DNA of 23,427 nt from a virus, in UHGV virus genome UHGV-1543744; one strand, 5' to 3'. The stretch's first letter is position 1. Every line of letters begins with the position of its first letter. The translations under genes and the position numbers were made by a program. This document shows positions 1,036-23,427 of the stretch, piece by piece. Under the pieces are notes generated by a model. That model made no database searches, was not told the origin of the DNA, and saw only the letters and a list, made by a program, of their open reading frames with translations.

Positions 1036-1056
1036 AACCCGTACTTAAGCTGGCTA

Positions 1057-5101: not shown

Positions 5102-5263
5102 CGGTGTTCACCTTTTTATTCACGCGCCGGATATCACCCGCTGCTTCACGGCGCAGCCAGTAGTTGTTCTCGTCAACATTTCGCCCTTCGGCGGGCAAAA
5201 GGTCACCGCGGGCAGGGTCAGGCACTGACCGCCCTTTAACAGGTTTCACAAACATGAAGATTC

Positions 5264-7032: not shown

Positions 7033-7034
7033 AC

Positions 7035-7235: not shown

Positions 7236-7256
7236 GATTCTTCACCCGTCAGAACA

Positions 7257-7278
7257 GGGGGCGCGGTTCCGCGCCCCT
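7257..7278 (-). other. GC-rich stem-loop just downstream of the major capsid gene
   Basis: GGGGCGCGG-TT-CCGCGCCCC: 9-bp perfect G/C stem with a 2-nt loop, 7 nt after the capsid stop codon. No U-tract follows, so it is not a classical intrinsic terminator. Confidence 0.5.
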
Positions 7279-7284
7279 GAGTGA

Positions 7285-8490: not shown

Positions 8491-8504
8491 CGTATTTCTC
8501 CTGA

Positions 8505-9155
8505 TTAGAAGTTCAGATTTTTCAGTGCATTCAGTGCAGAGCTCACATCCTCAGCGTCGCGCAGGGACAGTGCGCCATAGCCCCCGGCCATGAATGCTTT
8601 GGCCTGGGTACGGGAGAGTCCGACATCACGCAGGACTCTTTCGATTTTTTTCTGTTCGGGGATTTCCCCGCGGGCCAGTGCGTTCTTGACGTCGCTGATC
8701 CGCGCCTCGTCGTTAGACGGGAACGTCACCAGGCTGACTTCCCAGAGGTCGATTTCTTTCAGCAGAAAGGCTTCTTTGCTCCGGTCGTATTCCCAGTCTT
8801 TCAGGACGTACCCAATAGAAAGGCCGGTTAACGAACCGGCCTTCATGTGTGCATGTGCGCGTTTTGCGAGGGGATCATCATCAATAAGCAACCGTCCCCT
8901 GACGTAAAGCCCGACATCGTCTTCCTTCATTTCGGTGTAAACACCGATGGGTTCATCCATGCGGTGCTGCCAGAGCAGCGCAGGTAACGCTTTTCTGTCA
9001 CTCCACGCCCGCAGGGAAGCAGCAAATGCCCCGGACATCACCACATCATCGTGGCTGTCCTTTACACCAAAGACGGAGCCATACCCTTCAAACTCACCGG
9101 AGTCACTGACAGATTTCAGACTCAGCGGTACATCAAGACGTTGTTTCGTCTGCAT
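8505..9155 (-). CDS. Prohead protease (HK97 family-like)
   Basis: Positioned between portal and major capsid genes. Start moved to ATG at 9155 (MQTKQRLDVPLSL...), which has an AAGGA Shine-Dalgarno. The ORF-track start at 9191 has none and would overlap portal further. Confidence 0.7.
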   Translation of the reverse strand: MQTKQRLDVPLSLKSVSDSGEFEGYGSVFGVKDSHDDVVMSGAFAASLRAWSDRKALPALLWQHRMDEPIGVYTEMKEDDVGLYVRGRLLIDDDPLAKRAHAHMKAGSLTGLSIGYVLKDWEYDRSKEAFLLKEIDLWEVSLVTFPSNDEARISDVKNALARGEIPEQKKIERVLRDVGLSRTQAKAFMAGGYGALSLRDAEDVSSALNALKNLNF

Positions 9156-10374
9156 TGGCGTTATCCTTCTGCTTACCGGCCTTACTGCCATCGGAGGGTT
9201 TCGTGGTCATGTTCATCGGTGTGAGATAGACATCACCACCGGGACGCGGATTCATATCTTCCAGGTCGCGGCAGTCATTGGGAGAGTAAATTCCCCAGTT
9301 AATCCCGGTGGCGTAGGCTTCAAAACGGGACTTCATATCCCCGCGCAGTAACGCCCCGGCGTTAAATTTGGCGTAATAAACGCCCTGCTTACTTTTTCGT
9401 ACCAGTCCGGTGTTGATCCGCTGTTCGATGCGGGTCAGATACGGCACCAGTGAATAGTTGATAAATCCGAGCCCCAGTTCTTCGATATTGTTGAAGGTGG
9501 CGCGATCGGTGTTCTGCACCATGTGCAACGGCACCCGGAACAGACGACAGATTTCTTCAAGCTGAAACTTGCGGGTTTCCAGGAACTGGCTGTCCTCGGC
9601 GTTCAGCGCCATCGACTTCCAGTCCAGCCCCATCTCAAGGATCATCGGGCGGTGAGCATTACCAAGCCCGGTGTGACGCTCCTCAAAATCTTTCTTCAGG
9701 CGCTCGTAAGCCTGATCTGACAGCGTCTGCTCTGTACGCAACACACCCGACGTCACCGCGCCATTGCTGAACAGTCTGGCCCCGTGCTCTTCGGTCGCTG
9801 CCGCCAGCGATATTGCCTCGCGGGCATAGGCGATGGGATTCAGTCCCACCAGACCGTCCAGCGTCAGCGTGCGCACATGCCAGATATCTTCCTGGCTCAG
9901 TACATCCGTGGAGCCGTCCGGGAATGTGACCTGGTAAACCGGTTCCCAGCTACTGTTAAGCTTCGGTACCACACAACCTGGGTCGACGGGCAGCAGTTCA
10001 GCCACTTCGCCAAATGCTTTCACTTTGTAGGCGTAAAAGTTTCCCCGCAGGCACAGACAGGTGACCACCAGCTCCCAGAACTCCTGCGGCGTCATATAGC
10101 CATTGGGACGCGTGGAGATCAGCTTATGCAGACGTTCGCCGGTGGCTCTCTGTTTCAGGCTGCCGTTCAGGTGATACAGGTTGCAGGGCAACATCCCGAC
10201 CGACTCCGCCAGCACCCTGACGCAGGAAAAAACCGCCGTCAGTCGCATGGCCCGCTGGCTGCTGATCTGCTTTCCGGTATAGGTGTCATATGACAGCCCG
10301 ATAGCATCCGCCAGCTCTGCTGGCGTGGTCACCGGTGCGTCACTTTTTCGTTGAAATAATCCCGAAAAGAACAC
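9133..10374 (-). CDS. Portal protein
   Basis: 413 aa, immediately downstream of the large terminase and upstream of the protease. Start codon is GTG at 10374 with a strong GGAGGT Shine-Dalgarno 6 nt upstream. Acidic, Lys-rich C-terminus. Confidence 0.75.
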   Translation of the reverse strand: MFFSGLFQRKSDAPVTTPAELADAIGLSYDTYTGKQISSQRAMRLTAVFSCVRVLAESVGMLPCNLYHLNGSLKQRATGERLHKLISTRPNGYMTPQEFWELVVTCLCLRGNFYAYKVKAFGEVAELLPVDPGCVVPKLNSSWEPVYQVTFPDGSTDVLSQEDIWHVRTLTLDGLVGLNPIAYAREAISLAAATEEHGARLFSNGAVTSGVLRTEQTLSDQAYERLKKDFEERHTGLGNAHRPMILEMGLDWKSMALNAEDSQFLETRKFQLEEICRLFRVPLHMVQNTDRATFNNIEELGLGFINYSLVPYLTRIEQRINTGLVRKSKQGVYYAKFNAGALLRGDMKSRFEAYATGINWGIYSPNDCRDLEDMNPRPGGDVYLTPMNMTTKPSDGSKAGKQKDNANADETTS

Positions 10375-10556
10375 TATTTACCTCCGCCGACAGACGGCTG
10401 TGTACGGTCGAGATATCGCGCCACCAGCCACGACCAGAACAGGCACAGCGCCCCGGCAACAACAAACCCCGCCGGGGGATAAATCAGCCAGGCACCATAC
10501 GCCAGCAAAAGCGCACCCAGCACGCCCACCAGAGGCGCGAGAATCAGCATGATCAT
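10374..10556 (-). CDS. Small membrane protein with two predicted transmembrane helices and a charged C-terminus
   Basis: 60 aa with two hydrophobic stretches and a charged tail ([14 protein letters not shown]). ATG with GAGGT Shine-Dalgarno. Lies between the terminase and portal genes and overlaps the portal start by 1 nt. Confidence 0.5.
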
Positions 10557-10567
10557 AATTACCTCAG

Positions 10568-12301
10568 TTAAAGCGAGCGGATCCCGTAGGACTCAATGTG
10601 ATCAGACAGCGTGTCTTCTTTCTCGTACAGCATGGCTCTGCCAACCGCCATAATCAGCGCAACTGCACCATCAATTTTGTTTTCCGCCTGCTCTTTGACG
10701 GGCTTCACCACATCATCGTTACCCGGAATGGTTTTGCCGACCACATTGCCGATACACCAGGTCATGATGGGATTGCCGTCATGATGAAAGCGCTCCGATT
10801 CAATCGCCGCTTCCAGTTCTTTCATCGGATCGGACATGTTGGTGTAGTTCTGAATGATGGTGATGGGGTTCAGGTCTTCATCAGCAAGGTCATGCGACAA
10901 CCCGGTCGCCCCGAAGGGGTCGATGGGTGACTCACTGACCGGGCTGATTTTGTTCGCCGCTTTGGCCTCCTCGAGGATGTAGCGATAATCCACCTCTGCA
11001 CCATCGGTAACGGTCAGAACGCCCATTTCCACCCATTTCTGAAAGCGTTCGGCTGTCCGGCGATCTTCATTTTTCTCGACGCTGTACACCGTGTCATACG
11101 GTACCCAGAAGCGCGGAGCCACACTGTAGTAATGCGTTTTACCGTCAATCTCGCGGGTATAAAGTCGCGCCATGCTGTTCATATCCAGCTTACGCGCCAG
11201 GTCAAAGGCCAGAATGCACGGCTGCCCCTCGAACTGCTCAAGGGTCAGTGATTTATCCTCGCAGCTCTGCCAGCTCACCAGGTTGAAATACGCCGAACGC
11301 GCCGACACCCAGATATTGAGGTGTTTTGTTTTAAAGACGTTTGCCAGACGGGCGTTATTTTTCGCACGCTGCTGCTGACTTAACAAAAATTCGCGATAAA
11401 CCGACACGCCAATATTTGGATTGGCTTTTTCCAGCACCTGCGGGTCGGTCCAGTCGTCACCTTCATCAACGGTATAGATGATCCCGAACAGTTCATCGTT
11501 AGGCACCGAGCCGTTGAGCATCTCGATAACTTCCCGCCGCTTGTCGTAGCACGGCCCCTCAATGTTGTACCCGGCAGTAGTAATGGCCCACATCAGTGGC
11601 TGACGTCGCGCCCCCATCCCGGTAAGCATCGTGGTGTAAAGCGCATCGGTGGCGTGCTCGTGATATTCATCCACCACCGCACAGTGGGGTGATGATCCAT
11701 CACCGGGGTTACCGATCAGCGGTTCAAACCGCGCGCCATCCTCCGGACGGTTCATGTTTGAGGCGTTAACCTCAATCCCGAACGCTTCCGTCAGCATGGG
11801 TGTGCGTTTACACATCAGTCGCGCCGGGCGAAAGACTTCCCACGCCTGTTTCTCTGTCGTGGCACCGGAATACACTTCCGCGCCAAACTCGTTATCACAG
11901 GCAAAACAATACAGGGCAACACCGGCAGAGATTGCTGATTTGCCGTTCTTACGGGGGATTTCGGTATACACCTCCCGGAAGCGGCGCAACCGGGTGCCTT
12001 TATTGACCCAGCCAAACGCACAGCAGATCACAAATAGCTGCCACGGCTCCAGCGTGATGGGCATCCGTTTAAATGCCCACTCACCCTTGGTGTGCGGCAA
12101 CAGCTGAATAAATTTGGCGGCCCGTTCAGCCAGATCCTTGTCGAAGCGGTAACGAAACGACTTACTTTTTTCCGCCATCAGGTCATCAAGATGGCGCTGG
12201 CAGGCCTGAATCACAAACTGGCAGGCCACAATCTTTCCGCGCACGACATCCCGGGCATACTGATTGGCAGCATTTACGTTGGGGTAAGATTTCCGGCTCA
12301 T
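10568..12301 (-). CDS. terL: Terminase large subunit
   Basis: 577 aa, directly downstream of the small terminase subunit. Size and position fit; the NTPase and nuclease motifs were not aligned explicitly. Confidence 0.75.
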
Positions 12302-12314
12302 GATTCGATGATTT

Positions 12315-12800
12315 TCAGATTGTCAGAAACGGGTTAGTGGCTTTCTTCTTCCCCGCCAGGCCAATCAGACGCTGTCGGCTGCTGGGGTCGAGTCCGAGCA
12401 TTGCCCCCGTGCTGCTCATCTCGGACTCCTGTTCTTTTTTGGCGGTCAGCTCCGGATTTTTGACCATGCCACCCATTGCACCGGTGATGGTGTTACCCTG
12501 TCTGGCAATATTTTTCACGGCACGTCGCCAGAACTCATAGGCCACACACCACCGCTCAAGTACCGCCAGGTCAGTCACGCACAGCAGGCCCTGACCGCAG
12601 AGTTCTTTGGTTGTCAGTTGCCACATGATCGTGGCGAGAGGGAGATCTTCTTCAGCGAACCACTCCGGTGGCTCAACACCTTTGATGGGCGTAAAAACAG
12701 GTTCATCTTTATTCAGGGCTCGCTTGCCGGGGTTTCCGGCCAGCGCCTTGCGCGCCGTTGGCTTGGGGCGACGCCCGGAACGCCCCGCCGTTCCAGCCAT
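12315..12800 (-). CDS. terS: Terminase small subunit (P27-family-like)
   Basis: Gly/Arg/Lys-rich N-terminus ([29 protein letters not shown]) typical of P27-type small terminases. Start moved to ATG at 12800, which has an AGGAG Shine-Dalgarno 8 nt upstream. The ORF-track start at 12809 is a GTG abutting the Shine-Dalgarno. Confidence 0.7.
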
Positions 12801-13010
12801 ATGCGGCACTCCTGGTTAAATTTCATTTTTCGCGGGTATAAAAAAACGATGGGGCGGGCAGTCCCGGATAGTCAGGGCTGTAGAGATTTGACTACCCCCT
12901 CCCCACTGGATTCAGGTTACTGCTATTCCGTTAATCGCTGCTTACGGGGATAGCTGCGTTGTGATTTTGACCATTCAGGTCGCCGCTATTTCCTCACCGA
13001 TTGGGTGCTA

Positions 13011-13034
13011 CGCGTGCGCGTACTTGTCCCGAAA
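13011..13034. repeat. Box CGCGTGCGCGTACTTGTCCCGAAA upstream of terS, repeated at 19144-19380
   Basis: The 14-mer CGCGTGCGCGTACT is identical at 13011-13024 and 19144-19157. TACTTGTCCCGAAA is identical at 13021-13034 and 19367-19380. A 12-mer copy lies at 19263-19274. All copies are in the same orientation. Confidence 0.6.
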
Positions 13035-13076
13035 TACCAGAAACCGCCAGCCAGAGGATGATTTCCCTCTGGTGGT

Positions 13077-13358
13077 CTACCTTTGCCTCTTGCCGCCATT
13101 TAACCGGAAGGCGTTACCGTTCGGTTGCGCTATCCCCATGCGGTGTTGCGTTTCGGTAACAGCTTTATGCAGGTCGCCAAAGTCCTCAACCTTCACGGGC
13201 GGGCGCTTCACGTTCTCCAGACACGTTTCACGGCGGCGCTTTATCCATTCCCGATCATCGTCCTCGGTGCATAACAGCATGACTTCCATCCATCGCGCTG
13301 CGGCGCGTCGGTACAGCCCTTTTGCTTCCAGATCCTCGGCTTTACTGTCGTTTACCAT
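13077..13358 (-). CDS. Small putative transcriptional activator, PerC-like (tentative)
   Basis: 93 aa. N-terminal motif ...KAEDLEAKGLYRRAAARWMEVM... resembles the PerC/Pch family as I recall it; this was not verified by alignment. ATG with GGGGGAG Shine-Dalgarno. Last gene before the terS upstream region and followed by a hairpin (CCAGAGG-N9-CCTCTGG). Confidence 0.35.
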   Translation of the reverse strand: MVNDSKAEDLEAKGLYRRAAARWMEVMLLCTEDDDREWIKRRRETCLENVKRPPVKVEDFGDLHKAVTETQHRMGIAQPNGNAFRLNGGKRQR

Positions 13359-13360
13359 GT

Positions 13361-13831
13361 TTATCTCCCCCAGAATGGCGTTTCATCGTCGAATGGTGGG
13401 CGTTGGTCAAAATCATCAGGGGTATTATATAACTCCCATCCCGGCGCGGATTGTGTTGTGTGGCCCCTGCTGGCTCCGCTTGCTTTGACTGATTCGGCCC
13501 GCTTCCCGCCGGGGCGTACCGTTCTGGCGCTGATCACGCTGTCGGCTACTACCTGATAACCTTGCTGTGTACCGCCATCCTTGCCCGTCCACTGATTGAT
13601 CTGCATCGCTCCGGCAACACTGACTAAATCGCCTTTAACGTGTCCTGCCAGTGCGTCGGCCTGTTTGCCGAATGCCACCACGCCCAGCCAGAAAGTAACC
13701 TCTCCGCCCTCTGCTGCATGGCAGGGCAGTGCCACCGCTAACCGGCCCATTGCCATGCTTGTACCGTTTGCTGTGGTACGGGTCTGGGGATCTGCCACCA
13801 GCCGCCCGTATGCTGAAATTTGTGCTGTCAT
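13361..13831 (-). CDS. Single-stranded DNA-binding protein-like (OB-fold)
   Basis: 156 aa. Residue pattern W..FGK..A...KG..V.V.G.L..NQW...Y.VVAD is consistent with an SSB OB fold, and the C-terminus is acidic with a PF tip (DDFDQRPPFDDETPF...). ATG with GAGGAAA Shine-Dalgarno. Confidence 0.5.
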   Translation of the reverse strand: MTAQISAYGRLVADPQTRTTANGTSMAMGRLAVALPCHAAEGGEVTFWLGVVAFGKQADALAGHVKGDLVSVAGAMQINQWTGKDGGTQQGYQVVADSVISARTVRPGGKRAESVKASGASRGHTTQSAPGWELYNTPDDFDQRPPFDDETPFWGR

Positions 13832-14130
13832 AGATATTTCCTCATGTAGTCACTACCTCCGGGGATAATTTTCATTTCTTCCCTTAAAGGCCACTGCTCC
13901 GCCATTGCTGCGGTCGAGTGATTCCCGTCATCACGTCCGGCCTGTGCTGCCGTCCAGTGTGTTGCATATTCTGTAAATCCAATTTCTGCTGGCTGCCTCA
14001 TCCAGTGGGCGATCATCCTCAAGGTCATTTGCAGGCTTTGGGTGTCGCCCTGTAATGCGCGTTTGTCAGTAAACCCCTTCAATGCTTCACGCTCCTGATA
14101 GGTCATTTTCTGGCTGGTTTCTGTATTCAT
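13828..14130 (-). CDS. Hypothetical protein
   Basis: 100 aa, ATG with AAGGTGG Shine-Dalgarno, ATGA-coupled to the SSB-like gene. First gene after the iteron region. Confidence 0.5.
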   Translation of the reverse strand: MNTETSQKMTYQEREALKGFTDKRALQGDTQSLQMTLRMIAHWMRQPAEIGFTEYATHWTAAQAGRDDGNHSTAAMAEQWPLREEMKIIPGGSDYMRKYL

Positions 14131-14183
14131 TGCCCACCTTCGTTATAAGCTACCCCCCCCATAGAATCTTTTTGGGGGTGTAA

Positions 14184-14433
14184 TATCCCTACCAATCCCT
14201 ACTAACTGTCTCAGGCCACGAATGGCAAGGCTTTCAGACTGGTAGGCATTCAATTTTGTTGCCCTACATAACCCTACTTATCCCTACTAAATCACTTCAA
14301 CGGCATTTTACTGCCTGTTTTATTTGGTAGGGATATGTAGGGATAAGTAGGGATAAAAATATATATCCCTACCTAGTTTAAAGCCTTGCTACGTCTGGCC
14401 TCGTCTCGTTTTTAGTAGGGCAGTAGGGATAAG
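14184..14433. repeat. Iteron cluster, putative replication origin
   Basis: About 12 copies of the core GTAGGG/CCCTAC. Reverse copies lie at about 14187, 14197, 14262, 14272, 14282 and 14367. Three perfect tandem 10-bp units GTAGGGATA(T/A) lie at 14327, 14337 and 14347, followed by the AT-tract AAAAATATATAT (14355-14366). Further forward copies are at 14414 and 14423. The cluster is immediately 3' of the primase-helicase stop. Confidence 0.6.
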
Positions 14434-14449
14434 TGCCGCCGTAAAAGTT

Positions 14450-16891
14450 TCAATCATCACTCTGCCCGCTCTCCACACCGTAAGCGCGTGGCATGAACTC
14501 CTCAGCCTTCTCGTTATAGCCAACGTTGGTTTGCGCTCTGCCGTTAATGCTTCTCGTCAGGTAGCTGGCTCGGTACTCTTTTGCTGCTGATTTTATGGCG
14601 CGTGAAAACTTATTGACGGAAAGCGGTTTACCCAAACCGTGATACTCCATAAACGCCAGATAAAGATGATAAAGATACGTCCTCGGCTCTGGCTGGCCTG
14701 CCCATGTACCTCCGCCCATCATCATGCCTTTGGGTTCGTTCATGAAAAAAAGCGCCGCACACATATCGACAACCGGATCCGTGCCGCGTTTAACCTCTAG
14801 CGCCTCCTGCGAATCGCGCTGCTCTAGTAATAGTGCTTTTGCTTTGTTCTGGTCGGCAAAGGTGGTTAGCAGGTGGCGGATAATCACCGGGATTTCTCGC
14901 CTGATTTTTGCTGTTAAATCCGGGTCTTTGTCTGCGTCTGATACCGGGTTATTAAACGGGAATATCACGCGGCGGCGGGCAATGCCCCCGTTTCGCTCCG
15001 TGAATGTCATCGGCTCGTTATTGGTTGCCATAACAACGGCATTTATCACGGTTGTGAACTGCTTTTCATATTTCCCATCAATCTCTACCGGATCGCCGCC
15101 CGTAATGGCTTTAATCCCCGCACCCTCTCCAACATAGCGGGTCTGGTCAGGCATAATAATCAGGCTTTTTCCTACGAACTGCGCCCGTCCCCGTGCGGTG
15201 TCCAGCGTCATCATGCTACCGCTGGCGGTGTTGTGTTCACCTGCCAGCGTGGTTGCTATACTGCTGAATACGGATTTCCCACTGCCGCCCTCGCCAGTTA
15301 TCTCAATGAATAGCTGCCAGTCGTGACGCTTCGCCAGCACCATAAACAAGGCTGCTTTGATACGCTCGGCCTTATGATGGTCGCCAGCCGTTGCATGATT
15401 CAGCCAACGGGTAAAATTGGGGGCGCTGGTGGTAATATTTTCCCCCGGCGCTGGCGGGGTGTAGGTGATCCCATTGTGGTTCATCAGCCAGTTACCCGGC
15501 GAATGGGCGGAAAACGTCTGCGTGGCGAGGTCATAAACGCCGTTATCAAAACCAATCAGATCCCCGCTCCGCTCACCAATTACCGGTATTTGCAGCTTCA
15601 TGGTTGCGACAACCGATTTAATCCCCTTTTCGGTGTAGTGGGCTTCGTGCTCGTCGAAAATTGCCACCATAACCCTTTCTAATTCACTGTCTGGTAGCTT
15701 CACCCATACGCCAGATTCGTAGCAGTAAACAGTGCCACTATCAGGGTTAACCGCCAACATATCCCATCGAGATGAAAGCAACCGCGCTTTCTGGCTGGCT
15801 GCCATTTGTGCAATATCTCCGACTTCGGCTTTACGGCGGGATTTACCGCCCGCAATGGCCTGTAGTTGTGGTTTCACGGCTTCCCCCTGAATCTGGTACA
15901 TCGAATCGTTAAACGCAGCCGTAGCGACTTCCAGCCCGTTTTGCTGGCGGTAGTCGTCCCAGTCGGCTTTGTAGTCTGTCGGCGGCAGCGCCACCCAGCC
16001 AGCCACGGATAATGCTGCTTTCTCTGCGGCATCTTTGCCCGTGTTCGCCTGTTCGTCCTGCTGGTGGTCGTTATCTGCGGCAATGATAATTTGCGACTGC
16101 GGGTGTTTCCGGCGCATTACTCTGGCAACGTGGATCAGGTTCCCGGCGTCAATTGCCGACACTGTAAGCGCGTCCGGGCGCATCAGGTGAACGGACAGGG
16201 CCGTCGCCAGCCCCTCGGCAATTAATACGCTCTGCGGCTGTTCCGGTGCGTTAACGGCGTGATATGCCCCGCGCTTTGCTGAACCTGTCAGGAGTCGCTT
16301 CTCTCCCTGCGGTGTAATGGTTTGCGCTGCTGCCACTGCGCCGGATTCGTCCACCAGCTCCAGCAATAACGAACCATCCGGCATTACCGGATATTTAAAC
16401 CCGGTCAGCCCTTTTGATTGCAGGTAATCAGATTCGCCCTGTGTGGCACTCTGGCGCATTCCGGCATACAGACGGGCAAACGTAGCCCTTCGCTGCTCTG
16501 CGTCCTCTGCTGCCTGTTTCTGGCGCTCCTGCTCACGCTGCTGGCGGTCAGCTTCCAGTTGCTCCCTTCTATGGCTCGCTGCCACCGGATCGGTTTCCGC
16601 TGCCCGGTAATCAATACCCAGCACATCAGCGGCAAGCCTCGCCGCTTCTGTGGTGGCGCAGTTGTTCACCTTCTTAATCAGGTCTAAACCGTCACCAGCG
16701 CCACACTGATTGCAGATAAAGCTACCGCGCCCGTTGTCGTCGAATCTGAAACGGTCTTTTCCACCACATGCAGGGCATGGAGAATGGCGGCGCGATGAAT
16801 CAGGCACGTCGATAGACAATCCAGCCAGCACATAAGGCCAGCGCCCGGCGGCGGCACTGGTCACTTCGCGGATAAGGTCGATATTACGCAT
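14450..16891 (-). CDS. DNA primase-helicase (zinc ribbon, TOPRIM-like primase core, C-terminal P-loop NTPase)
   Basis: N-terminal CxxC...CxxC zinc ribbon (CPACGGKDRF...CNQCGAGDG), acidic TOPRIM-like motifs (AEG...IIIAADNDH), and a C-terminal Walker A (GEGGSGKS). Start moved to ATG at 16891, which has a perfect AGGAGG Shine-Dalgarno. The ORF-track start at 16948 is a GTG. Confidence 0.8.
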   Translation of the reverse strand: MRNIDLIREVTSAAAGRWPYVLAGLSIDVPDSSRRHSPCPACGGKDRFRFDDNGRGSFICNQCGAGDGLDLIKKVNNCATTEAARLAADVLGIDYRAAETDPVAASHRREQLEADRQQREQERQKQAAEDAEQRRATFARLYAGMRQSATQGESDYLQSKGLTGFKYPVMPDGSLLLELVDESGAVAAAQTITPQGEKRLLTGSAKRGAYHAVNAPEQPQSVLIAEGLATALSVHLMRPDALTVSAIDAGNLIHVARVMRRKHPQSQIIIAADNDHQQDEQANTGKDAAEKAALSVAGWVALPPTDYKADWDDYRQQNGLEVATAAFNDSMYQIQGEAVKPQLQAIAGGKSRRKAEVGDIAQMAASQKARLLSSRWDMLAVNPDSGTVYCYESGVWVKLPDSELERVMVAIFDEHEAHYTEKGIKSVVATMKLQIPVIGERSGDLIGFDNGVYDLATQTFSAHSPGNWLMNHNGITYTPPAPGENITTSAPNFTRWLNHATAGDHHKAERIKAALFMVLAKRHDWQLFIEITGEGGSGKSVFSSIATTLAGEHNTASGSMMTLDTARGRAQFVGKSLIIMPDQTRYVGEGAGIKAITGGDPVEIDGKYEKQFTTVINAVVMATNNEPMTFTERNGGIARRRVIFPFNNPVSDADKDPDLTAKIRREIPVIIRHLLTTFADQNKAKALLLEQRDSQEALEVKRGTDPVVDMCAALFFMNEPKGMMMGGGTWAGQPEPRTYLYHLYLAFMEYHGLGKPLSVNKFSRAIKSAAKEYRASYLTRSINGRAQTNVGYNEKAEEFMPRAYGVESGQSDD

Positions 16892-17225
16892 GGTTGCCTC
16901 CTGCCACGGTCGCGCCCATGTCTTTAACCATGCTTTGCCATATCTCACGCCCGACGTCAGTCAATCCGTCATTAGTGACGCAACGCTCAAGAAGCTCGAC
17001 CCCCACGGTTTCCCACTGCGGGTAGGACACTTTCATGGCTGCCAGTGTGTAGCTATCGATCAGGCTGCGAACGCCTTTTACTCCATTGACGATTTCCACA
17101 CGGACGGCGAGGCCGTCCGCATCAACCATGAAATAGTCACCGCCGCTGGTGGAGGTAATGTGGTTATACAGTGCCGACGCATACTTATTCGCCAGCGCAT
17201 TCAGTCTGAAATTTTTAGTAATCAT
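16884..17225 (-). CDS. Hypothetical protein
   Basis: 113 aa, ATG with GAGGGGG Shine-Dalgarno. Its stop overlaps the primase start by 8 nt. Confidence 0.5.
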   Translation of the reverse strand: MITKNFRLNALANKYASALYNHITSTSGGDYFMVDADGLAVRVEIVNGVKGVRSLIDSYTLAAMKVSYPQWETVGVELLERCVTNDGLTDVGREIWQSMVKDMGATVAGGNHA

Positions 17226-17234
17226 GTCGCCCCC

Positions 17235-17861
17235 TCAGTGCGGCAGCGGCATTTCAGGCCAGCCGTTTTCATCCAGTTCAGCTATAAAGCTGTTGTGAAG
17301 TTCAGCAAGCGTTTCACGCCCGAACGGGGTCAACTCGCCGCGCTCCGTGTCGATCATGGCCTGATAAAAAACAATGGCGTTCGCTGTTCCCTGCTCAATG
17401 CCGTAGCGCTCAACCATTGCGCCCTCCATGTTGTTAGCCATCGCCAGACGTTCCGCGAACGGGTAAACCACAATCCCCGCCGTGCCATTGGAGTAAATCG
17501 CCACCTGCGATGAAGTGCCGTCAGACTCAGTTACCGTGGTTGTGCCGTTTTCGCGCTTCATCTCAGAAATGAACGTCGCAGCAATCAGCCAGCGCCACAT
17601 AGTGACGTTATGCTGCGCGGTGAAGTCGAACCAGCCACGCGCCCCGCCATCAGCAACGGCAAAATGAATGGCGTATCCGATATCTGGCTTATCGTCGTAC
17701 TCTCCGGCGTCAAGGCCGTTCACGGCGCTCTCGTAGCTGATAAGAGCAACCTGCTCATATCCCCCGGCATCATTGCGGGTCATGATATTGACGCCGTGCG
17801 GTGTGGCTTCGGCGTGTAATAAGTCGGCATTTCCCGATTTAATGGTCGGTGCGTTGCTCAT
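17235..17861 (-). CDS. Hypothetical protein
   Basis: 208 aa, ATG with GGAGGG Shine-Dalgarno, ATGA-coupled to the upstream gene. No recognisable family. Confidence 0.5.
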   Translation of the reverse strand: MSNAPTIKSGNADLLHAEATPHGVNIMTRNDAGGYEQVALISYESAVNGLDAGEYDDKPDIGYAIHFAVADGGARGWFDFTAQHNVTMWRWLIAATFISEMKRENGTTTVTESDGTSSQVAIYSNGTAGIVVYPFAERLAMANNMEGAMVERYGIEQGTANAIVFYQAMIDTERGELTPFGRETLAELHNSFIAELDENGWPEMPLPH

Positions 17862-18121
17862 GCGCTGCCCTCCGCATCAATTCTGGCTATATCGACAATC
17901 GTCAGGACTTTACTCAGCCAGCAATACGCGATGGCTGCTTGCTCAACTTCGAGGAGTGGTAATAAATCGGTCATAACGTGAGCCAGCCCATTGCGGGCGC
18001 GGGTCATGCGTTCTGCTGTTCGGTCCGCCAGCGTAAAATCATCCGGGTATGCTTCTTTACGAGATAGCATCGATTCGGCTTCCAGATCTGCCGGGTGGCG
18101 ATAGATGGTATTTATGTTCAT
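17858..18121 (-). CDS. Hypothetical protein
   Basis: 87 aa, ATG with GGGAGGG Shine-Dalgarno, ATGA overlap with the upstream gene. Confidence 0.5.
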   Translation of the reverse strand: MNINTIYRHPADLEAESMLSRKEAYPDDFTLADRTAERMTRARNGLAHVMTDLLPLLEVEQAAIAYCWLSKVLTIVDIARIDAEGSA

Positions 18122-18432
18122 TTGCCCGCCCTCCCTTTGGCTTCTTTTTCACTGATTGAGCGCAAGAATGCGGCGTTTGCAGCGCTATCGTTCAGCGCCA
18201 GCGCAACTTCTCCGATATGTCCCAGCATTGCGCCTAATCTGTACATATCAGCCTTAGCGCTTTCCTCCGGGTAGCCATCGCTACCAGCCGCCCAGAACAT
18301 GAGGCTACCAATGGCACTTACGCCCAGCATTAAATCATCCACGGCATCACTGGCGCAGCTCTCAATTCCTTTCAGATCATCAGGCGTACAACCATCAAAT
18401 TTGCAGGACACTAAATCGTTATACATGCTCAT
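18118..18432 (-). CDS. Hypothetical acidic protein
   Basis: 104 aa, ATG with GAGGTGG Shine-Dalgarno, ATGA overlap with the upstream gene. Confidence 0.5.
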   Translation of the reverse strand: MSMYNDLVSCKFDGCTPDDLKGIESCASDAVDDLMLGVSAIGSLMFWAAGSDGYPEESAKADMYRLGAMLGHIGEVALALNDSAANAAFLRSISEKEAKGRAGK

Positions 18433-18608
18433 GCCGCCACCTCACGAACGCGGGTAATCTGGATGTGGGAAAGGCGTTCATTTCTGGCCTGATTTAGCGC
18501 CTCAGCTTTGGCGCTGATCGCGCTGCGGGCGTCAACGATATAAACGAACTCGACTAATTCGCCGCTCCGGGCGGTGGCGCATCCTGCAACACGGAAGTAA
18601 TTAAGCAT
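18429..18608 (-). CDS. Hypothetical small protein
   Basis: Start moved to ATG at 18608 (MLNYFRVAG...), which has an AGGGGG Shine-Dalgarno. The ORF-track start at 18638 is a TTG. Confidence 0.45.
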   Translation of the reverse strand: MLNYFRVAGCATARSGELVEFVYIVDARSAISAKAEALNQARNERLSHIQITRVREVAA

Positions 18609-18792
18609 GTGCGCCCCCTGTGCGAATACGTCCGGCAAAAAAGCAAACGTGATCCCGCGCCAGAATGCGGCGGGCTTCCTGCTCAGTCTCTGCGGCGATA
18701 TGGTGAATTTTGACGGTAATTGTCGGCATATCGCGGCGAACTGCGGCGATAATCCAGATAAATTGCGGTTTTTGGGTAGGGGTAGTAGCCAT
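18601..18792 (-). CDS. Hypothetical small protein
   Basis: Start moved to ATG at 18792 (MATTPTQKPQFIWIIAAVRR...), which has an AGGAGG Shine-Dalgarno 8 nt upstream. The ORF-track start at 18960 has none. Confidence 0.45.
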   Translation of the reverse strand: MATTPTQKPQFIWIIAAVRRDMPTITVKIHHIAAETEQEARRILARDHVCFFAGRIRTGGAHA

Positions 18793-18950
18793 TATGGCAG
18801 CCTCCTGTAACTGGGATTTATTCCCACCACCGGAAACGCCAATTTCACTGGTGGTGAGCTGAACAGGGTTGGCGTAACCGGCGTTACAGGAAACCGGCGC
18901 GGATCGCTCCGCCCCCATCCAGCCCACCATTACTTTTTGAGCAATATGGG

Positions 18951-19550
18951 CTATAGCCATATCGCTGGGAAAGAGGTGTGCAGATGCGAGGACACAAAAA
19001 AGACGCTCGGCGCGTCATGTGTCGCCTGTAACATTATCAGGACGCCAATCCCGGCACCAGATTTTGCTGGTGCGCTATAACCATAAACCGGGTTGGCGAT
19101 AGTCGGCAAGCCCTTTTTTATGGACTCCAGAAACTCACCTTCGCGCGTGCGCGTACTGTTGCATAAATTCCCTGCATCTAGTGGTGATGTCAGAAAAATC
19201 TTCCCGCCTCGTGTAGTGATGATGGGAAAATCTTCCTCGCGTAGTGACCCCCAATAAATCTTCGTGCGCGTACTGGTCTCGAAACTCTCCTCGTCACCAC
19301 GACGAGAAAATGAGGAGCTGGCATTAGCTGGCACTGTTATGCCAGCTTCGCATTCATGCGCGTGCGTACTTGTCCCGAAAACACCAAGATTTGTAAAGAT
19401 CTGGCGGTGGCAAATGTCAGGTTTTGACAGGTTCCAAACGTCGCTATTTGTCGCAATCTGGCGGCGGGCTGCTTTGCTCCAGACGTTAACATTTGCATAC
19501 ATCAGGCCAGCCAGGGGAAAGGCTTTATTCTGGATGGCGGCATTAAGCAT
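18951..19550 (-). CDS. Questionable ORF spanning the repeat-rich region
   Basis: 199-aa ORF with an ATG at 19550 overlapping the antirepressor stop, and a G-rich weak Shine-Dalgarno. It runs through the tandem repeats, three hairpins and the box shared with the terS upstream region, and uses many rare codons (ATA, CTA, ACA, AGT). It may be a regulatory or noncoding region instead. Confidence 0.3.
   Translation of the reverse strand: MLNAAIQNKAFPLAGLMYANVNVWSKAARRQIATNSDVWNLSKPDICHRQIFTNLGVFGTSTHAHECEAGITVPANASSSFSRRGDEESFETSTRTKIYWGSLREEDFPIITTRGGKIFLTSPLDAGNLCNSTRTREGEFLESIKKGLPTIANPVYGYSAPAKSGAGIGVLIMLQATHDAPSVFFVSSHLHTSFPAIWL
19131..19310. repeat. Array of about six degenerate tandem repeats with a roughly 30-bp period
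   Basis: Units begin at about 19131, 19164, 19194, 19227, 19255 and 19281, with consensus roughly (G/T)AAAT(C/T)TTCC..CG..GTA(G/C)TG(A/G). Spacings are 33, 30, 33, 28 and 26 bp, so they are not locked to codon phase. Flanked by inverted repeats at 19054-19073, 19290-19306 and 19326-19347. Confidence 0.5.
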
Positions 19551-20376
19551 GATTAGCCCCCAGATGTTTAGCTAACCAGCGCTGAGAGAGGCGGATTAGC
19601 TCGGCTTTACGCAGGTCATATCCCATACCCATATCAATCAGCGTAATGTTGGTACTCTCCAGGTAGGCGAGGTGTTCCAGTTGCCCTGCGTTCATGCTGT
19701 CCCGTGGTTCGCCAGTAATGTCATTTGCCTGCGCCCACTGCTTCGCCGTCATGCCACCCAGCACGATACGGGCGATCATGTTGCTCTCGTTGCTGTAGTG
19801 GCGAGCCTGCGTCTGTTTACCCTGTTCTGCGCGGGCGCTTTCCAGCGCTACGCACATCGGTTTAAACAGGTTGGCGGCACTGATACGGGCTTTTAGCTGG
19901 CGACGATAGCGGGCGGCGATTTCAGGCACGCTACGCTGTAATTCTTCCTCGCACTGGATGAAATAACGGCGGATAGCGCGGCCCTGTTCAGTGCGTTCGA
20001 TCATTGCCAGTTCTTTCGCCATTCCGACACTTAACAGATAGTCTTTGCCGGGTCTGCCAGAGTGCTTAATCTTGCTGTAAGCCGCGCCATTCGGGCTTTT
20101 CCCCAGATTTGGGGAAATTGTTTTATGGACTGAGTAATCGTGCCCAATGGTGAAGTCATATTCAGAGATGCGATCAGTGATCCATGTAGAGAAGTCTTTT
20201 CCCACGCCCAACGCTTTGTGTAACGCTTTTGCGCTAACAATATTGGTTTCACGCCCACCGATATGACCAGGAATAACCGGGACAATTGTGGCAAATTCAT
20301 TACCGTTAATTGTTCCCTGATAGGCGTTCAGATGAGGGGCGGCCTCAGAAATTAATCTGCTTTTTTCGATGTTCAT
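19543..20376 (-). CDS. Phage antirepressor-like protein (Ant/Rha-type N-terminal domain with ORF6C-like domain)
   Basis: 277 aa. N-terminal segment ...IVSAKALHKALGVGKDFSTWITDRI... resembles antirepressor N-domains, and ...DYLLSVGMAKELAMIERTEQGRAIRRYFIQCEE... resembles the ORF6C/KilAC-type domain (from memory). ATG with GGAGA Shine-Dalgarno. Confidence 0.55.
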   Translation of the reverse strand: MNIEKSRLISEAAPHLNAYQGTINGNEFATIVPVIPGHIGGRETNIVSAKALHKALGVGKDFSTWITDRISEYDFTIGHDYSVHKTISPNLGKSPNGAAYSKIKHSGRPGKDYLLSVGMAKELAMIERTEQGRAIRRYFIQCEEELQRSVPEIAARYRRQLKARISAANLFKPMCVALESARAEQGKQTQARHYSNESNMIARIVLGGMTAKQWAQANDITGEPRDSMNAGQLEHLAYLESTNITLIDMGMGYDLRKAELIRLSQRWLAKHLGANHA

Positions 20377-20388
20377 TTTCAGTCTCCG

Positions 20389-20823
20389 TTAGGCGGCGGT
20401 GAGATTGTCCGGGTATAGGTTGAGAATGTCGGCAATTTCAGGCTGAGAAAGTCCCTGATAGCCGCCAGCGTCGGCGTTATGGTTCACAAGCCGAATAACT
20501 TTTAGAACGTCACCGCGCCCGGTAAAGCGATAGCGTAAATGTGACCCTATCCCGTCGGGGTTCTTTTCGTCTATACGCTCAAGCTGAATATCAAGCCTGC
20601 GCTCTAACTCGCTGGCGTAGTTCCTTCCAGATGAAAGGCGGCAATATTGCAGAATGTCATTTTCTGTCCATCCCTCTATACCAGTACGCAGCATATAGAC
20701 GCGGGCGCGGTGTTTCTTTGGGGTACGCTTAGGTACTTGTACCGGGCTGGTGGTCGGCGTAATATCAGACGTGCGAATATCTGAGTTAGCCGCCTGCTGT
20801 ACGGGGCGGTTTTTCTTTTTCAT
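20389..20823 (-). CDS. Hypothetical protein with basic, Pro/Thr-rich N-terminus
   Basis: 144 aa, ATG with AAGGTGG Shine-Dalgarno, start overlaps the AlpA stop by 1 nt. N-terminus MKKKNRPVQQ...PKRTPKKHRAR suggests nucleic-acid binding. Confidence 0.5.
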   Translation of the reverse strand: MKKKNRPVQQAANSDIRTSDITPTTSPVQVPKRTPKKHRARVYMLRTGIEGWTENDILQYCRLSSGRNYASELERRLDIQLERIDEKNPDGIGSHLRYRFTGRGDVLKVIRLVNHNADAGGYQGLSQPEIADILNLYPDNLTAA

Positions 20824-21041
20824 TACGCCACCTTTCCCCGGCGCTCCGCCAGCCAGTTGTGAATCTCAACCGCATCAAACGCAGTCACGTTATCTGTTAG
20901 CTTCACTGGGCGTGGAAGAGTGCCATTTTTAACCCATCTATCAATAGTAGGCAGTGAAACACCTAGCAATTCCGGCATGCGAAAGCGACGGATGTATCCA
21001 GTTGTTGGGATAGCTGATGATGCTGGCTTGTGTGCTGTCAT
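20823..21041 (-). CDS. alpA: AlpA-family (MerR-like helix-turn-helix) transcriptional regulator / excisionase-like protein
   Basis: 72 aa. Motif ...RMPELLGVSLPTIDRWVKNGTLPRPVKLTDNVTAFDAVEIHNWLAERR matches the AlpA/Xis helix-turn-helix family of P4-like elements and PICIs. First gene after the AT-rich leader. Confidence 0.7.
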   Translation of the reverse strand: MTAHKPASSAIPTTGYIRRFRMPELLGVSLPTIDRWVKNGTLPRPVKLTDNVTAFDAVEIHNWLAERRGKVA

Positions 21042-21121
21042 ATCTCTAGTAACCTCTCTGATAGCTCATGAAGTTACTTAAAGTTTAGTGGTTGCCCATA
21101 CAGTATTTCTATTAAGACTAG

Positions 21122-21174
21122 AATCTATTGAAAGAAATTATAAATCTATTGAAAAAATACTGATCCACTGAAAG
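21122..21174 (-). promoter_or_regulatory. Putative alpA-operon promoter with flanking operator-like direct repeats
   Basis: Minus-strand TATAAT (plus 21137-21142) lies between two perfect copies of TTTCAATAGATT (plus 21122-21133 and 21143-21154), with a third degenerate copy at 21162-21173. Repeats are spaced about 20 bp apart. No good -35 is visible. About 90 nt upstream of the alpA ATG. Confidence 0.3.
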
Positions 21175-21511
21175 ATTGCAAATGCAGGTGGGATAATTAT
21201 TTTCTTTATTTTCAATTAGTTACCAGTTTAAAAAATCATTGTTTTATCAAAGAGTTATATCTTTCATCGTCATTCATCATGTTTTTACATTTCCTTTTAT
21301 CTTTTATTATTCAATTGGTTGAGTCGGTTTATAATGGCTCATGATGGCTTAAAATGCTAATGATAGCTGGCGTATCTTTTAGAGATGGGGTGATTACAGA
21401 TGAACTAAGCCGAACAGATATAGCAATGGCTAGGCATAGAATTATCTATGCTGGTGGAGATGGGTAAACAGGTAATGCCCCGCCATTGCTTTGGAGGGGC
21501 GTGAAAAGTGA

Positions 21512-22162
21512 TTAGTCGAGATCGTGGACAGCTAATAAAGCCCGTGAGATTTTTTCTAGGAATGTGGCTTTTGCTATTCCTTTATGGGATATCCCTTCAT
21601 CCTTGATTAAGGTTTCTATGTCACGGTATATAGCTGTGCGATTAGGTTTCCCATTTTGGGTGTAGGAAGATGAGCCTGATTTTTTTATCAGCAGATGTAC
21701 TATCAACCCCATCATTTTCATTGTCCCGTTTTCCTCATCCTGCTTTCTATGCTGCCCACGTCCGCTGCGGTTGGTTTCTTTGATGTAGTTTACTAACTGG
21801 AGTCCTCCAAGGTTTCGGGCTTTTTCTTCCCAGCCCTTGGTGCCACGCAAATCATCAATCGCTTCTGATATTTTCTGAACAATTATTTCTGGTGTATTTG
21901 TGTCAATAAATGGGTAAGAAGCTAAGAAAATATCAAGGGCATGGCAAGGCTCGTCTTTACTAGTTTTTTCACCTCTGTACACCTTGATAGCTCTGGCAAG
22001 ATGAGTTCTGACAAAATCGACATATTCGAAATTTTCCTCAGGCACATCGCTAATGCGCATAGATGGGTTTAGGCCAGCCAAGGCCACAGCCATTTCATGA
22101 GGGGTAATCGATACAGATGAACAAAGCCGTTCGATTGGCGATTTTCTCAAGATGTTGTTCAC
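21512..22162 (-). CDS. Hypothetical cargo protein, translationally coupled to the integrase
   Basis: 216 aa. GTG start at 22162 with a strong GGAGG Shine-Dalgarno 5 nt upstream, overlapping the integrase stop (GTGA). Visibly lower G+C than neighbouring genes. No recognisable family or catalytic motif. Confidence 0.55.
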   Translation of the reverse strand: MNNILRKSPIERLCSSVSITPHEMAVALAGLNPSMRISDVPEENFEYVDFVRTHLARAIKVYRGEKTSKDEPCHALDIFLASYPFIDTNTPEIIVQKISEAIDDLRGTKGWEEKARNLGGLQLVNYIKETNRSGRGQHRKQDEENGTMKMMGLIVHLLIKKSGSSSYTQNGKPNRTAIYRDIETLIKDEGISHKGIAKATFLEKISRALLAVHDLD

Positions 22163-23427
22163 ATTTGCCTCCGGGCTTTATCGAATGGCGTTACGTTGTA
22201 GTCTTTTCCGCTTTCCAGTGCCACCAGCAAATCACACCACTGCGCCAGCGCCGCTTTACGCTCATCAAAATACTGGTGACGGTTATAGATACCTTCCACG
22301 CCTTTAATTTTGTGGTTGAGGCATCTTTCAGCCACTACGGGATCAACGCCCAGCGCGGCTAAATGGGTGCGGGCTGTGCGCCGGAAGTCGTGAATCGTGA
22401 AATTAGGCACATCCGGCATTTCAGCGCGAACCTTAGCCAGTGCTACGGGTAAAGTGCTTTCCTGAATATGTGGGATCATTCTGTTTTGCATCTTTCTGGC
22501 TGGCAGTACCCATGCGCTGTTGCATGAGAACGTTTTAAGCTCTCTCAGCCATTCGACGGCTGGCGGTGCTAATGGGATGTCTATAGCGTCGCCGTTTTTA
22601 CTGCGTTCTTCTGGTAAGTGCCAGATGCCTTTGTCCAGGTCGAACTCCTCCCAGCGGGCGGCGCATAACTCCATTTTGCGGACGCATAACGCTAACAGTA
22701 ATTTGAACGTGATTTCGTTCTGGCGACTGAATCCCTTAGCTGTGCGCATAGCCTGAAACAGTCGGATTAGTTCGCCACGTGTTAACCAGCGGTCGCGGGA
22801 AACTTCTTTCCCTCCGGCGTCTGCCACCTCAAAGGCTGAACACGGGTTAATCTCCAGTGCGTGCCGCTTAATGCCGTAGTCAAATATGCGGCGTGTCCAG
22901 CGCAGAACGTCCGTTGCTATGGTCGGCGCTCCACGGTCAACAATACTTTTCAGCATGTCGTCGATATGGCGCGGCTTCACGTCCTCCACCTTCATGCTGC
23001 CAATGCATGGGTTTATATCTTTGTCGATACGGCGGCGGAGTATATCGGGGTGCTTCCAGCGCGGGAGGATCTGACGCTCAAAGTATTCAGCGGCAAGCTC
23101 TGAAACGCGCATAGCGTTCTTCTCTGCTTCCATCTTCGCCAGTGCTTCGGTTTTGCGCTTCTGCTTCTCTCCTGCAACGTCATAGCCCAACGCAACGCGA
23201 GCCGATAGCTCTTTGGCTGTCTCTCTGGCCTTTGATAGTGATAGCTCGGCATATGAGCCGATAACCATTGCTCGCTGCTTACCTGCGAATTTATAGCGAA
23301 AGCGCCAGAAAGGGACTGTGTAGTTTTTGGGGTAGCAAATATAAAGGCCGTTGCCATCGGCCCTTCCTTCAAATCTATCTCCGGCCTTTATCCATGCGCG
23401 GATCTGCATGTCTGTAATCTTTGGCAT
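22159..23427 (-). CDS. int: Tyrosine integrase, P4-like family
   Basis: 422 aa. N-terminal DUF4102-like arm-binding region (MPKITDMQIRAWIKAGDRFEGRADGNGLYI...), then a catalytic domain with HxxR (FTIHDFRRTART) and the tyrosine region (GVEGIYNRHQYFDERK). The ATG sits exactly at the window edge, so the promoter and att site are outside the window. Confidence 0.85.
   Translation of the reverse strand: MPKITDMQIRAWIKAGDRFEGRADGNGLYICYPKNYTVPFWRFRYKFAGKQRAMVIGSYAELSLSKARETAKELSARVALGYDVAGEKQKRKTEALAKMEAEKNAMRVSELAAEYFERQILPRWKHPDILRRRIDKDINPCIGSMKVEDVKPRHIDDMLKSIVDRGAPTIATDVLRWTRRIFDYGIKRHALEINPCSAFEVADAGGKEVSRDRWLTRGELIRLFQAMRTAKGFSRQNEITFKLLLALCVRKMELCAARWEEFDLDKGIWHLPEERSKNGDAIDIPLAPPAVEWLRELKTFSCNSAWVLPARKMQNRMIPHIQESTLPVALAKVRAEMPDVPNFTIHDFRRTARTHLAALGVDPVVAERCLNHKIKGVEGIYNRHQYFDERKAALAQWCDLLVALESGKDYNVTPFDKARRQM

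Follow-up and report, generated by a model that had tools for sequence, protein, structure and literature searches.

What do the six small open reading frames (ORFs) do that separate an antirepressor gene from a primase gene in the UHGV virus genome UHGV-1543744? The stretch of DNA analysed, 23,427 nucleotides in length and hereafter called the window, carries these ORFs of 59–208 amino acids (aa) on its minus strand, at 16884–18792. An earlier note on this DNA had described them as chained by ATGA or other short overlaps, each with a Shine-Dalgarno sequence and none with an assignable motif, and had suggested anti-defence, host-takeover or helper-interference roles for them. We conclude, with a probability of roughly 70%, that the six ORFs represent the front of an RNA-gated, translationally coupled early (replication) operon, belonging to a satellite of about 12 kb of the kind of phage P4 and the phage-inducible chromosomal islands (PICIs). 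The earlier note had missed a C4/CI-type antisense RNA predicted to target the ribosome-binding site of the first gene, which would set the logic of the whole operon.

The chain begins with ORF6 (18792–18601, minus strand, as are all the genes that follow; 63 aa, pI 10.7), which overlaps orf5 (18608–18429; 59 aa, basic, pI 9.2) by 8 nt (ATGCTTAA). Next come orf4 (18432–18118; 104 aa, acidic, pI 4.4), orf3 (18121–17858; 87 aa, acidic, pI 4.8) and orf2 (17861–17235; 208 aa, acidic, pI 4.45), the orf5/orf4, orf4/orf3 and orf3/orf2 junctions each being ATGA. A gap of 9 nt separates orf2 from orf1 (17225–16884; 113 aa), the stop of which overlaps by 8 nt (ATGCGTAA) the ATG at 16891 of the distal cistron. 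This last gene (16891–14450) encodes a P4 alpha-type primase-helicase with Zn-ribbon, Toprim, D5_N and DUF5906 domains, and matches, in addition to these Pfam domains, TIGR01613 and phrog_2249 (E = 3e-148). Purine-rich Shine-Dalgarno sequences are found at all six small-ORF starts (AGGAGG, GGGGG, GAGGTGG, GGGAGGG, GGAGGG and GAGGGGG, in chain order). When the operon strand was scanned from the terminator of the upstream isrK-type RNA described below (19016–19002) to 16884, neither terminator-like nor promoter-like sites were obtained.

The coding status of the six ORFs was examined with diverged homologues from 36 related loci. Median pairwise dN/dS values, from ORF6 to orf1, were 0.24, 0.25, 0.23, 0.21, 0.21 and 0.17, and the GC content by codon position is of coding type in all six. 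The identical six coding sequences are annotated by RefSeq in the locus of Escherichia coli GDSC2239PM, which shares 100% identity with the window over 16800–19600. As dN/dS lies at 0.17–0.25 in every ORF, all six are genuine protein-coding genes under purifying selection. Coordinates, junctions, dN/dS values and RefSeq annotation thus agree with the gene structure proposed in the earlier note, and its reading of the cluster as an operon is likewise supported: the genes are co-directional and translationally coupled, and a P4-type primase comes last.

About 750 nt separate the antirepressor gene antA from ORF6, and this interval comprises two RNA genes scoring in Rfam, repeated motifs and an annotated ORF. 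The upstream RNA (19073–18996, minus strand; Rfam RF01394, 75 bits for a gathering threshold of 50) is an isrK-type small RNA, equivalent to P4 seqA. Its 3′ end consists of a hairpin and a U6 terminator (19016–19002 and the T run that follows), detected as a terminator-like site on the minus strand, and upstream copies of the two C4 target sites lie within it, TTGGCGT (19048–19042) and GTTACAGG (19032–19025). A candidate promoter read from the sequence, TTGCCG-18-TATGGT, is located 7 nt upstream of its 5′ end. The downstream RNA (18934–18847, minus strand) is a C4/P4-CI-type antisense immunity RNA, matching Rfam RF01695 over its full length (1–87) with 76.9 bits for a gathering threshold of 45. 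It displays a long closing stem, two hairpins, the specificity loop UUUCCUGUAACG and a single-stranded ACGCCAA. When the Rfam structure was projected on 18 distinct homologues, that of P4 included, all 486 of the 486 cells corresponding to its 27 pairs were paired, and 11 pairs had changed on both sides. Slid partners paired in 33–52% of the cells, and none of 500 shuffles reached the observed value. The secondary structure of the C4-type RNA is fully backed by covariation.

The operon leader that follows (18842–18801, minus strand) contains two C4 target sites, a′ (TTGGCGT, 18842–18836) and b′ (GTTACAGGA, 18811–18803). The latter overlaps the GGAGG Shine-Dalgarno (18805–18801) of ORF6, whose ATG is at 18792. 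The hairpin loop UUUCCUGUAACG is perfectly complementary over 9 nt to GUUACAGGA (18811–18803); loop b of the RNA is given as CCUGUAAC and its target site b′ as GUUACAGG. A second contact is provided by ACGCCAA, which pairs with UUGGCGU (18842–18836). Pairing was scored by loop-restricted complementarity counts, whole-RNA RNAduplex predictions being uninformative because they ignore intramolecular structure. Thirteen loop types occur among 35 loci, each with a perfect b/b′ complement of 8–10 nt, and the position of b′ is constant in all of them (+34/35 nt after C4, abutting GGAGG-N7-9-ATG); complementarity between loops and targets of different types averages 4.5 nt. The a/a′ contact co-varies as well, in five variants including that of P4, both downstream and upstream. 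The upstream a′ copy in the isrK-type RNA was present in 8/8 loci checked, and eight of the 13 loop types have an upstream b′ copy with a length of 7 nt or more. In P1, C4 follows a two-site design in which a and b pair with a′ and b′, and the P4 CI RNA has seqC as a further target beside seqA. From the co-varying pairings, the C4-type RNA of the window is predicted to target the ribosome-binding site of ORF6.

Comparison with strain M9682-C1 points in the same direction. The sole difference between the window and that strain is a mosaic patch of about 250 nt (18795–19045) that covers both RNAs and their targets, is flanked by 100%-identical DNA and contains compensatory differences. The patch looks like a swap of immunity specificity by recombination.

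ORF6 itself, located directly downstream of the C4-type RNA (which ends at 18847) and with its ribosome-binding site inside the RNA target, matches the complete NCBIfam model NF033153 of Icd-like host cell division inhibitors (positions 1–48 of 48; 71.8 bits for a cut-off of 25; E = 3.5e-20). The statement that none of the six carries an assignable motif therefore holds for orf5, orf4, orf3 and orf1, and has to be withdrawn for ORF6. The protein is 40% identical (E = 3e-10) to an ORF of 65 aa nested at the end of the P4 "cI" ORF, which is named Kil in PMC10111431, and 33% identical to the Icd of phage D6. It is encoded by a stand-alone gene in 27 of 33 loci, where the icd frame is closed 8–17 codons upstream of the ATG. 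The P1 Icd protein binds FtsZ and blocks or disperses the Z-ring (PMC11897509). As an Icd/Kil homologue, ORF6 most likely arrests cell division, and by analogy FtsZ would be its target.

We compared the region from icd to the primase in the 36 related loci, in which orf2 is present by search design. The run is unbroken in 36/36 loci, contains 4–9 cistrons and spans 1.1–2.6 kb. Among its 226 junctions, 110 are of −4 (ATGA-type), 62 of −8 and 36 are gaps of 9–14 nt, and none exceeds 40 nt. The icd gene occurs in every locus and orf3 nearly always, orf5, orf4 and orf1 being variable. Such conserved coupling, combined with free exchange of cassettes, fits the passing of the translational state of the first cistron down to the primase. 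Most of the related satellites also carry, between their orf3 and orf2 homologues, an ORF of 70–73 aa (family F4) that the window lacks; its counterpart may be the family of about 75 aa that 61% of P4-like elements have between epsilon and alpha (PMC8628076).

We propose that, in the quiescent state, C4 would bind both a′ and b′ and occlude the icd Shine-Dalgarno, so that the first cistron would remain untranslated. Because each cistron starts within a few bases of the preceding stop, the block should then be propagated to the later genes, through the loss of translational coupling and through Rho-dependent polarity, both of which are established for P1 immI and P4. The primase would be kept silent, a state that would correspond to immunity or maintenance. 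Upon induction, transcription and translation arriving from the AlpA/AntA side would override the block, C4 being outrun or its targets being translated through, and the chain would be read as far as the primase. In the window the 199-aa ORF is coupled to antA, as eta is to the alpA homologue in P4.

One of the closest parallels to this arrangement is the left operon of P4, with the order seqA - CI RNA - seqC / eta-kil - epsilon - orf151 - orf106 - alpha. The window shares with it the succession of an isrK-type RNA, a C4-type RNA and the GGAGG plus ATG-GCT-AC start (MATT...) of an Icd-like ORF of about 63–65 aa, followed by small overlapping ORFs with an alpha-type primase as the last gene. 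Common to both are also the two-site complementarity upstream and downstream and an AlpA/Vis-type gene with a coupled long ORF upstream; the orf2 C-terminus weakly matches ORF106. As reported in PMC10111431, eta of P4 is coupled to the alpA homologue and its translation prevents termination; according to the same paper, relatives of P4 seqA and CI are recognised by the isrK and C4 profiles, and C4/isrK hits occur in Gram-negative PICIs. The window differs from P4 in that none of the six ORFs is homologous to epsilon (PF25738) or orf151, in that AntA and a 144-aa ORF are inserted between the gene encoding the helix-turn-helix (HTH) protein and the RNA locus, and in that its accessory genes come from other families and are more numerous.

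The immI operon of P1 and P7 (c4 antisense RNA - icd - ant1/ant2) resembles the window in having a C4-family RNA directly upstream of an Icd-family gene, a ribosome-binding site that is the RNA target, and distal genes reached via coupling. The patch comprising the RNA and icd is similar at the DNA level to the P1-like phages D6 and RCS47, and in D6 icd overlaps ant. Unlike in immI, the antirepressor gene of the window lies upstream of the RNA and not downstream, and the distal genes are accessory ORFs and a primase, so that satellite replication would be controlled instead of antirepressor synthesis. A third system to be considered is isrK - orf45 - anrP of Salmonella Gifsy-1, where a stable inactive RNA structure controls the orf45 ribosome-binding site and the short ORF is conserved at the nucleotide level, not at the protein level (PMC4825925). 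As in the window, an RNA of the isrK family that possesses a terminator of its own precedes a short ORF, which is ATGA-coupled to the downstream gene. In Gifsy-1, however, IsrK activates orf45/anrP translation in trans and the distal gene encodes an antirepressor, whereas in the window repression of the P4/P1 type is suggested by the adjacent C4 RNA and by the covariation of its targets.

Among the downstream genes, orf2 belongs to phrog_1515, and its family comprises about 120 clusters at 50% identity, from satellites as well as temperate phages. The structure model obtained for it is confident and of alpha/beta type. Upon comparison of this model with solved structures no structural relative was found, Ocr/ArdA-type and other anti-defence proteins included; of the Icd-like and Ocr-like folds considered in the earlier note, the former is represented by ORF6 and the latter is not recognised in orf2. 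A profile built from the window orf2 and three phage homologues returned only close relatives that were already known. The C-terminal helices (residues ~139–196) weakly match the P4 ORF106 family phrog_5991 (E = 0.0015, residues 140–196), and when every ORF family was aligned by hhalign with P4 epsilon, orf151 and ORF106 and with one another, the orf2/ORF106 pair alone stood out. Members of the orf2 family carry precomputed hits to PF17345.9 (DUF5375), of strength not stated. In 38 loci orf2 is found directly upstream of the primase, and in P4-like elements the cnr gene lies between epsilon and alpha, its family being present in 90% of them (PMC8628076). Because its C-terminus resembles P4 ORF106, we infer that orf2 is most likely a primase-associated regulator.

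For the other small ORFs, the searches were largely negative. Pfam, NCBIfam, PHROGs and PADLOC gave for the six ORFs only the Icd-like match of ORF6 and PHROGs of unknown function for orf4, orf2 and orf1. Searches of the PDB (single sequences of orf1–orf4, profiles of orf1 and orf2) returned nothing below E = 0.06, hhalign of each ORF family with P4 epsilon and orf151 gave E values of at least 0.29, and PF25738 (epsilon) had no match among the ORFs scanned. In the Pfam, PHROG, NCBIfam, PDB and hhalign comparisons made, orf5, orf4, orf3 and orf1 matched neither a family of known function, nor a structure, nor a P4 counterpart. Without match in Pfam, PHROG or NCBIfam, orf5 is common in related loci, where it occurs as two sequence types (~90% and ~45% identity). 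A facultative cassette present in about one third of the related loci, orf4 matches phrog_6805 (E = 1e-12) and phrog_15327 (E = 3.5e-11), both families of unknown function. Pfam, PHROG, NCBIfam and the PDB all lacked a match for orf3, which occurs in nearly all related loci and is at times duplicated or present in a 167-aa form. Neither orf4 (by tblastn) nor orf3 had a homologue in 50,697 deposited phage genomes. The remaining ORF, orf1, falls in phrog_37628 and displays a conserved N-terminal motif, ITKNFRLNALANxY; it is facultative, being present in about half of the satellite loci, and travels with orf2 in early-left operons of some temperate phages, often 1.3–2.3 kb downstream of it. Its single-sequence AF2 model was unusable (pLDDT 40). 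We propose that orf5, orf4, orf3 and orf1 are interchangeable accessory cassettes on the gated transcript. A bolder version, which we consider doubtful, would have orf2 as the founder of a new fold family acting as partner or regulator of the P4-type primase-helicase, or else as a helper- or host-manipulation factor, orf5, orf4, orf3 and orf1 as new small effectors, and all of them released by one RNA switch with at least 13 specificities.

A different view of the cluster, close to that of the earlier note, is that its genes serve mainly in anti-defence, host takeover or helper interference and would be the first to be produced upon induction or entry, the primase being linked to them by position only. 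Accessory or arms-race genes typically form a mosaic of small cassettes like that found between icd and the primase, the acidic character of orf4, orf3 and orf2 recalls many DNA-mimic anti-restriction proteins, and orf2 and orf1 also occur in temperate-phage early-left operons near Ant/Bro, away from the primase. Furthermore, the P4 helper-derepression gene epsilon occupies an equivalent position, and Icd/Kil is itself a host-takeover function. However, no ORF matches an anti-restriction, Ocr, Ard or P4-epsilon ("Derepression", PF25738) family, the confident orf2 model is unlike any solved anti-defence protein, and the dN/dS values correspond to ordinary purifying selection, not to the diversifying one. 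The searches with Pfam and with PADLOC, which models defence systems and not anti-defence proteins, brought no support for these roles, and we regard the view as improbable for the cluster as a whole; orf5, orf4, orf3 or orf1 may have such a role. To an even lower degree we favour the opposite extreme, namely that the five unassigned proteins are all accessory factors of the primase-helicase (loader, origin-binding helper, copy-number or partition-like proteins) and the region a replication module. The tight translational coupling to the primase in every locus, the resemblance of the orf2 C-terminus to ORF106, the existence of whole elements as small circular "plasmid" records (such as the 12,152-bp NZ_CP148430), for which episomal replication control would be useful, and a 16-nt motif with three copies just upstream of the RNA genes and one downstream of the genes for replication, in a manner that recalls P4 ori/crr, all speak for such a module. 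Yet orf5, orf4 and orf1 are dispensable in many similar elements with the same primase family, orf2 and orf1 lie far from the primase in phage genomes, and none of the proteins matches a known replication family. The six proteins, in fact, do not all belong to known replication-accessory or structural families.

That some of the six ORFs are not genes at all, overlapping frames having been over-called in a GC-rich leader, was also considered. The neighbouring "Ash" ORF consists for the most part of translated RNA genes, and the ORF census contains several short overlapping frames (F10, F14 and others). Against this stand the low dN/dS over many diverged pairs, the coding-type GC by codon position, the conservation of lengths and of start/stop junctions in the 36 loci and the existence of PHROG families for three of the ORFs, which render over-calling by far the least credible of these explanations.

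Several points weigh against the RNA-gated operon that we prefer. The promoter, the processing of the C4-type RNA and the Rho dependence are presumed by analogy, and the route of induction is presumed as well. As 27 of 33 loci have their icd frame closed upstream, read-through translation in that frame is not general, and this part of the P4 mechanism may not apply. In addition, the long eta-like ORF of P4, the translation of which prevents termination, is split in the window into the 199-aa ORF and a separate frame. ORF6 is just 33% identical to a P1-like Icd, and the action of Icd on FtsZ has been reported to be species-specific (PMC11897509). With respect to orf2, its hhalign match to P4 ORF106 is weak (E = 0.003 over 55 columns, probability 7–11%), PF17345.7 gave no hit for orf2 or for two members of its family, even at E ≤ 10, and in 45 temperate-phage loci orf2 is not next to the primase, being located in the early-left operon beside Ant/Bro genes. 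The P4 ORF106 is presumably Cnr, the copy-number regulator that reportedly acts on alpha.

Directly upstream of this locus and in the same orientation lies the gene of an AntA/AntB-type antirepressor (20376–19543, minus strand; PF08346, E = 4e-21; phrog_5817). An 8-nt overlap couples it to an ORF of 199 aa annotated as "Ash family protein" (19550–18951, minus strand). Both RNA genes are located inside annotated ORFs, this "Ash family protein" (18951–19550) and an "Icd-like" one (18601–18960), and the C-terminus of the "Ash" ORF corresponds to the translated isrK region. Its N-terminal ~470 nt lack a codon-position pattern (GC 0.50/0.49/0.52) and contain repeats. The Pfam family Phage_ASH (PF10554) is split over two frames in the window, and it maps to the seqA-cI region of P4 (P4 8168–8800), not to epsilon; P4 epsilon is PF25738, a different family, although one paper names epsilon Ash. 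The "Ash" family annotation may largely be an artefact of conserved RNA sequence being translated. In strain M9682-C1 the "Ash" and icd frames are fused in frame into one ORF of 303 aa. A programmed frameshift joining both frames was considered and discarded: no slippery site coincides with the break, the patch has the mosaic make-up of a recombinant, and in most relatives the icd frame is closed just upstream of its ATG.

Two types of repeats were observed in this area. Three tandem direct repeats of about 30 nt, with 63–72% identity to a reference copy, occupy 19171–19262 in the N-terminal part of the "Ash" ORF, a stretch that may be regulatory or origin DNA instead of coding. A 16-nt motif, CGTGCGCGTACTGGTC on the plus strand, occurs in four copies of the same orientation (13013–13028, 19146–19161, 19263–19278 and 19359–19374), 0.14 being expected by chance when up to 3 mismatches are allowed. 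The isrK/C4 RNAs have three of the copies a short distance upstream of them, and the fourth is located downstream of PerC, close to the probable cos site described below; the layout is reminiscent of the ori and crr repeats of P4, to which the alpha protein binds.

We also determined to which kind of element the operon belongs. The segment 12807–23427 is 99.96% identical to an island of about 12 kb located between dinD and yicC in E. coli GDSC2239PM, which confirms the likeness to P4 and PICIs noted earlier. The island contains int, an AlpA-like HTH gene, the 144-aa ORF, AntA, the RNA locus, the six ORFs, the primase, SSB and PerC, and its annotation includes no structural genes and no sid, delta or psu. 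Two further ORFs of the window, the basic 144-aa one (20389–20823, minus strand; between the AlpA-like HTH gene and antA) and another of 216 aa (21512–22162, minus strand; beside int), had no match in Pfam, NCBIfam, PHROGs or PADLOC. With the Gram-negative PICIs EcCICFT073 and EcCIMP1, the matching island shares int, an AlpA-type HTH gene, the antirepressor, "Ash", a P4-family primase, SSB, PerC and a size of about 12 kb; PMC11773190 lists the same conserved features in EcCIMP1-like elements. PICIs are divided into Integration-Bro-Replication-Late zones in PMC10111431, and term searches of PICI papers, PMC10111431 and PMC11773190 among them, returned no characterisation of small ORFs located between Bro zone and primase. 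Judged by its composition (int, AlpA-type regulator, primase, absence of structural and lysis genes and a candidate packaging site), the element classifies as a PICI-like satellite. It does not appear to be a P4-like satellite in the strict sense, because the six ORFs bear no likeness to epsilon and sid, delta and psu are unannotated in the island; the core set of strict P4-like elements comprises int, psu, delta and sid as well as alpA, epsilon and alpha (PMC8628076).

The rest of the window has a different origin. Positions 257–12904 match at 99.8% late genes of an SfV/e14-like prophage located at argW in GDSC2239PM, namely one for a hypothetical protein and then those from the tape measure to TerS. 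By these matches the window combines two loci of a single strain, E. coli GDSC2239PM. The possibility that it represents one complete myovirus prophage or a capsid-forming PICI was discarded, the late genes (257–12904) and the early region (12807–23427) matching different loci of the same strain. Both loci have in common a homologous segment of about 98 nt (12807–12904) just upstream of terS, 97% identical to the island and 89% to the prophage, where its counterpart is the HNH|terS intergenic region; it is a probable cos site. The junction at 12807–12904 was found in 0/5,426 complete E. coli genomes, and either satellite-helper recombination or an assembly misjoin may have given rise to it. 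Positions 1–256 of the window lie outside the prophage late region. They probably account for the match that a 1–14400 query has in each of the 5,426 E. coli genomes; in that case, the late-gene block would be cut off at 257, where chromosomal DNA adjoins, and would lack the baseplate and fibre genes of the complete prophage. A complete relative of the satellite has been deposited as the circular "plasmid" NZ_CP148430.1 (12,152 bp). Together with 22 other small non-mobilizable circular "plasmid" records from E. coli and Klebsiella, it carries AntA, Icd-like, small ORFs, primase, PerC and integrase, which suggests that these records are excised, possibly replicating episomal forms.

The architecture, which combines the designs of P1 immI and of the P4 left operon, was already known in principle, and C4/isrK hits in PICIs have been published. 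New here are the covariation found over 13 specificities, the conservation of the coupling, the mosaic of cassettes and orf2 as a candidate for a new fold. With them, a group of anonymous hypothetical genes becomes a defined unit in which one antisense RNA appears to gate an FtsZ-type division inhibitor, several small proteins and a primase. The widespread annotation "Ash family protein" overlies two RNA genes. As to new satellite functions, the best candidates are the orf2 family, with a confident model lacking a known fold relative and a possible Cnr-like domain, and the four small cassettes that are absent from, or rare in, deposited phage genomes. The 13 co-varying loop/target types offer orthogonal RNA switches. 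They represent natural immunity specificities for PICI-like satellites in the Enterobacteriaceae and would therefore explain how related satellites could coexist.

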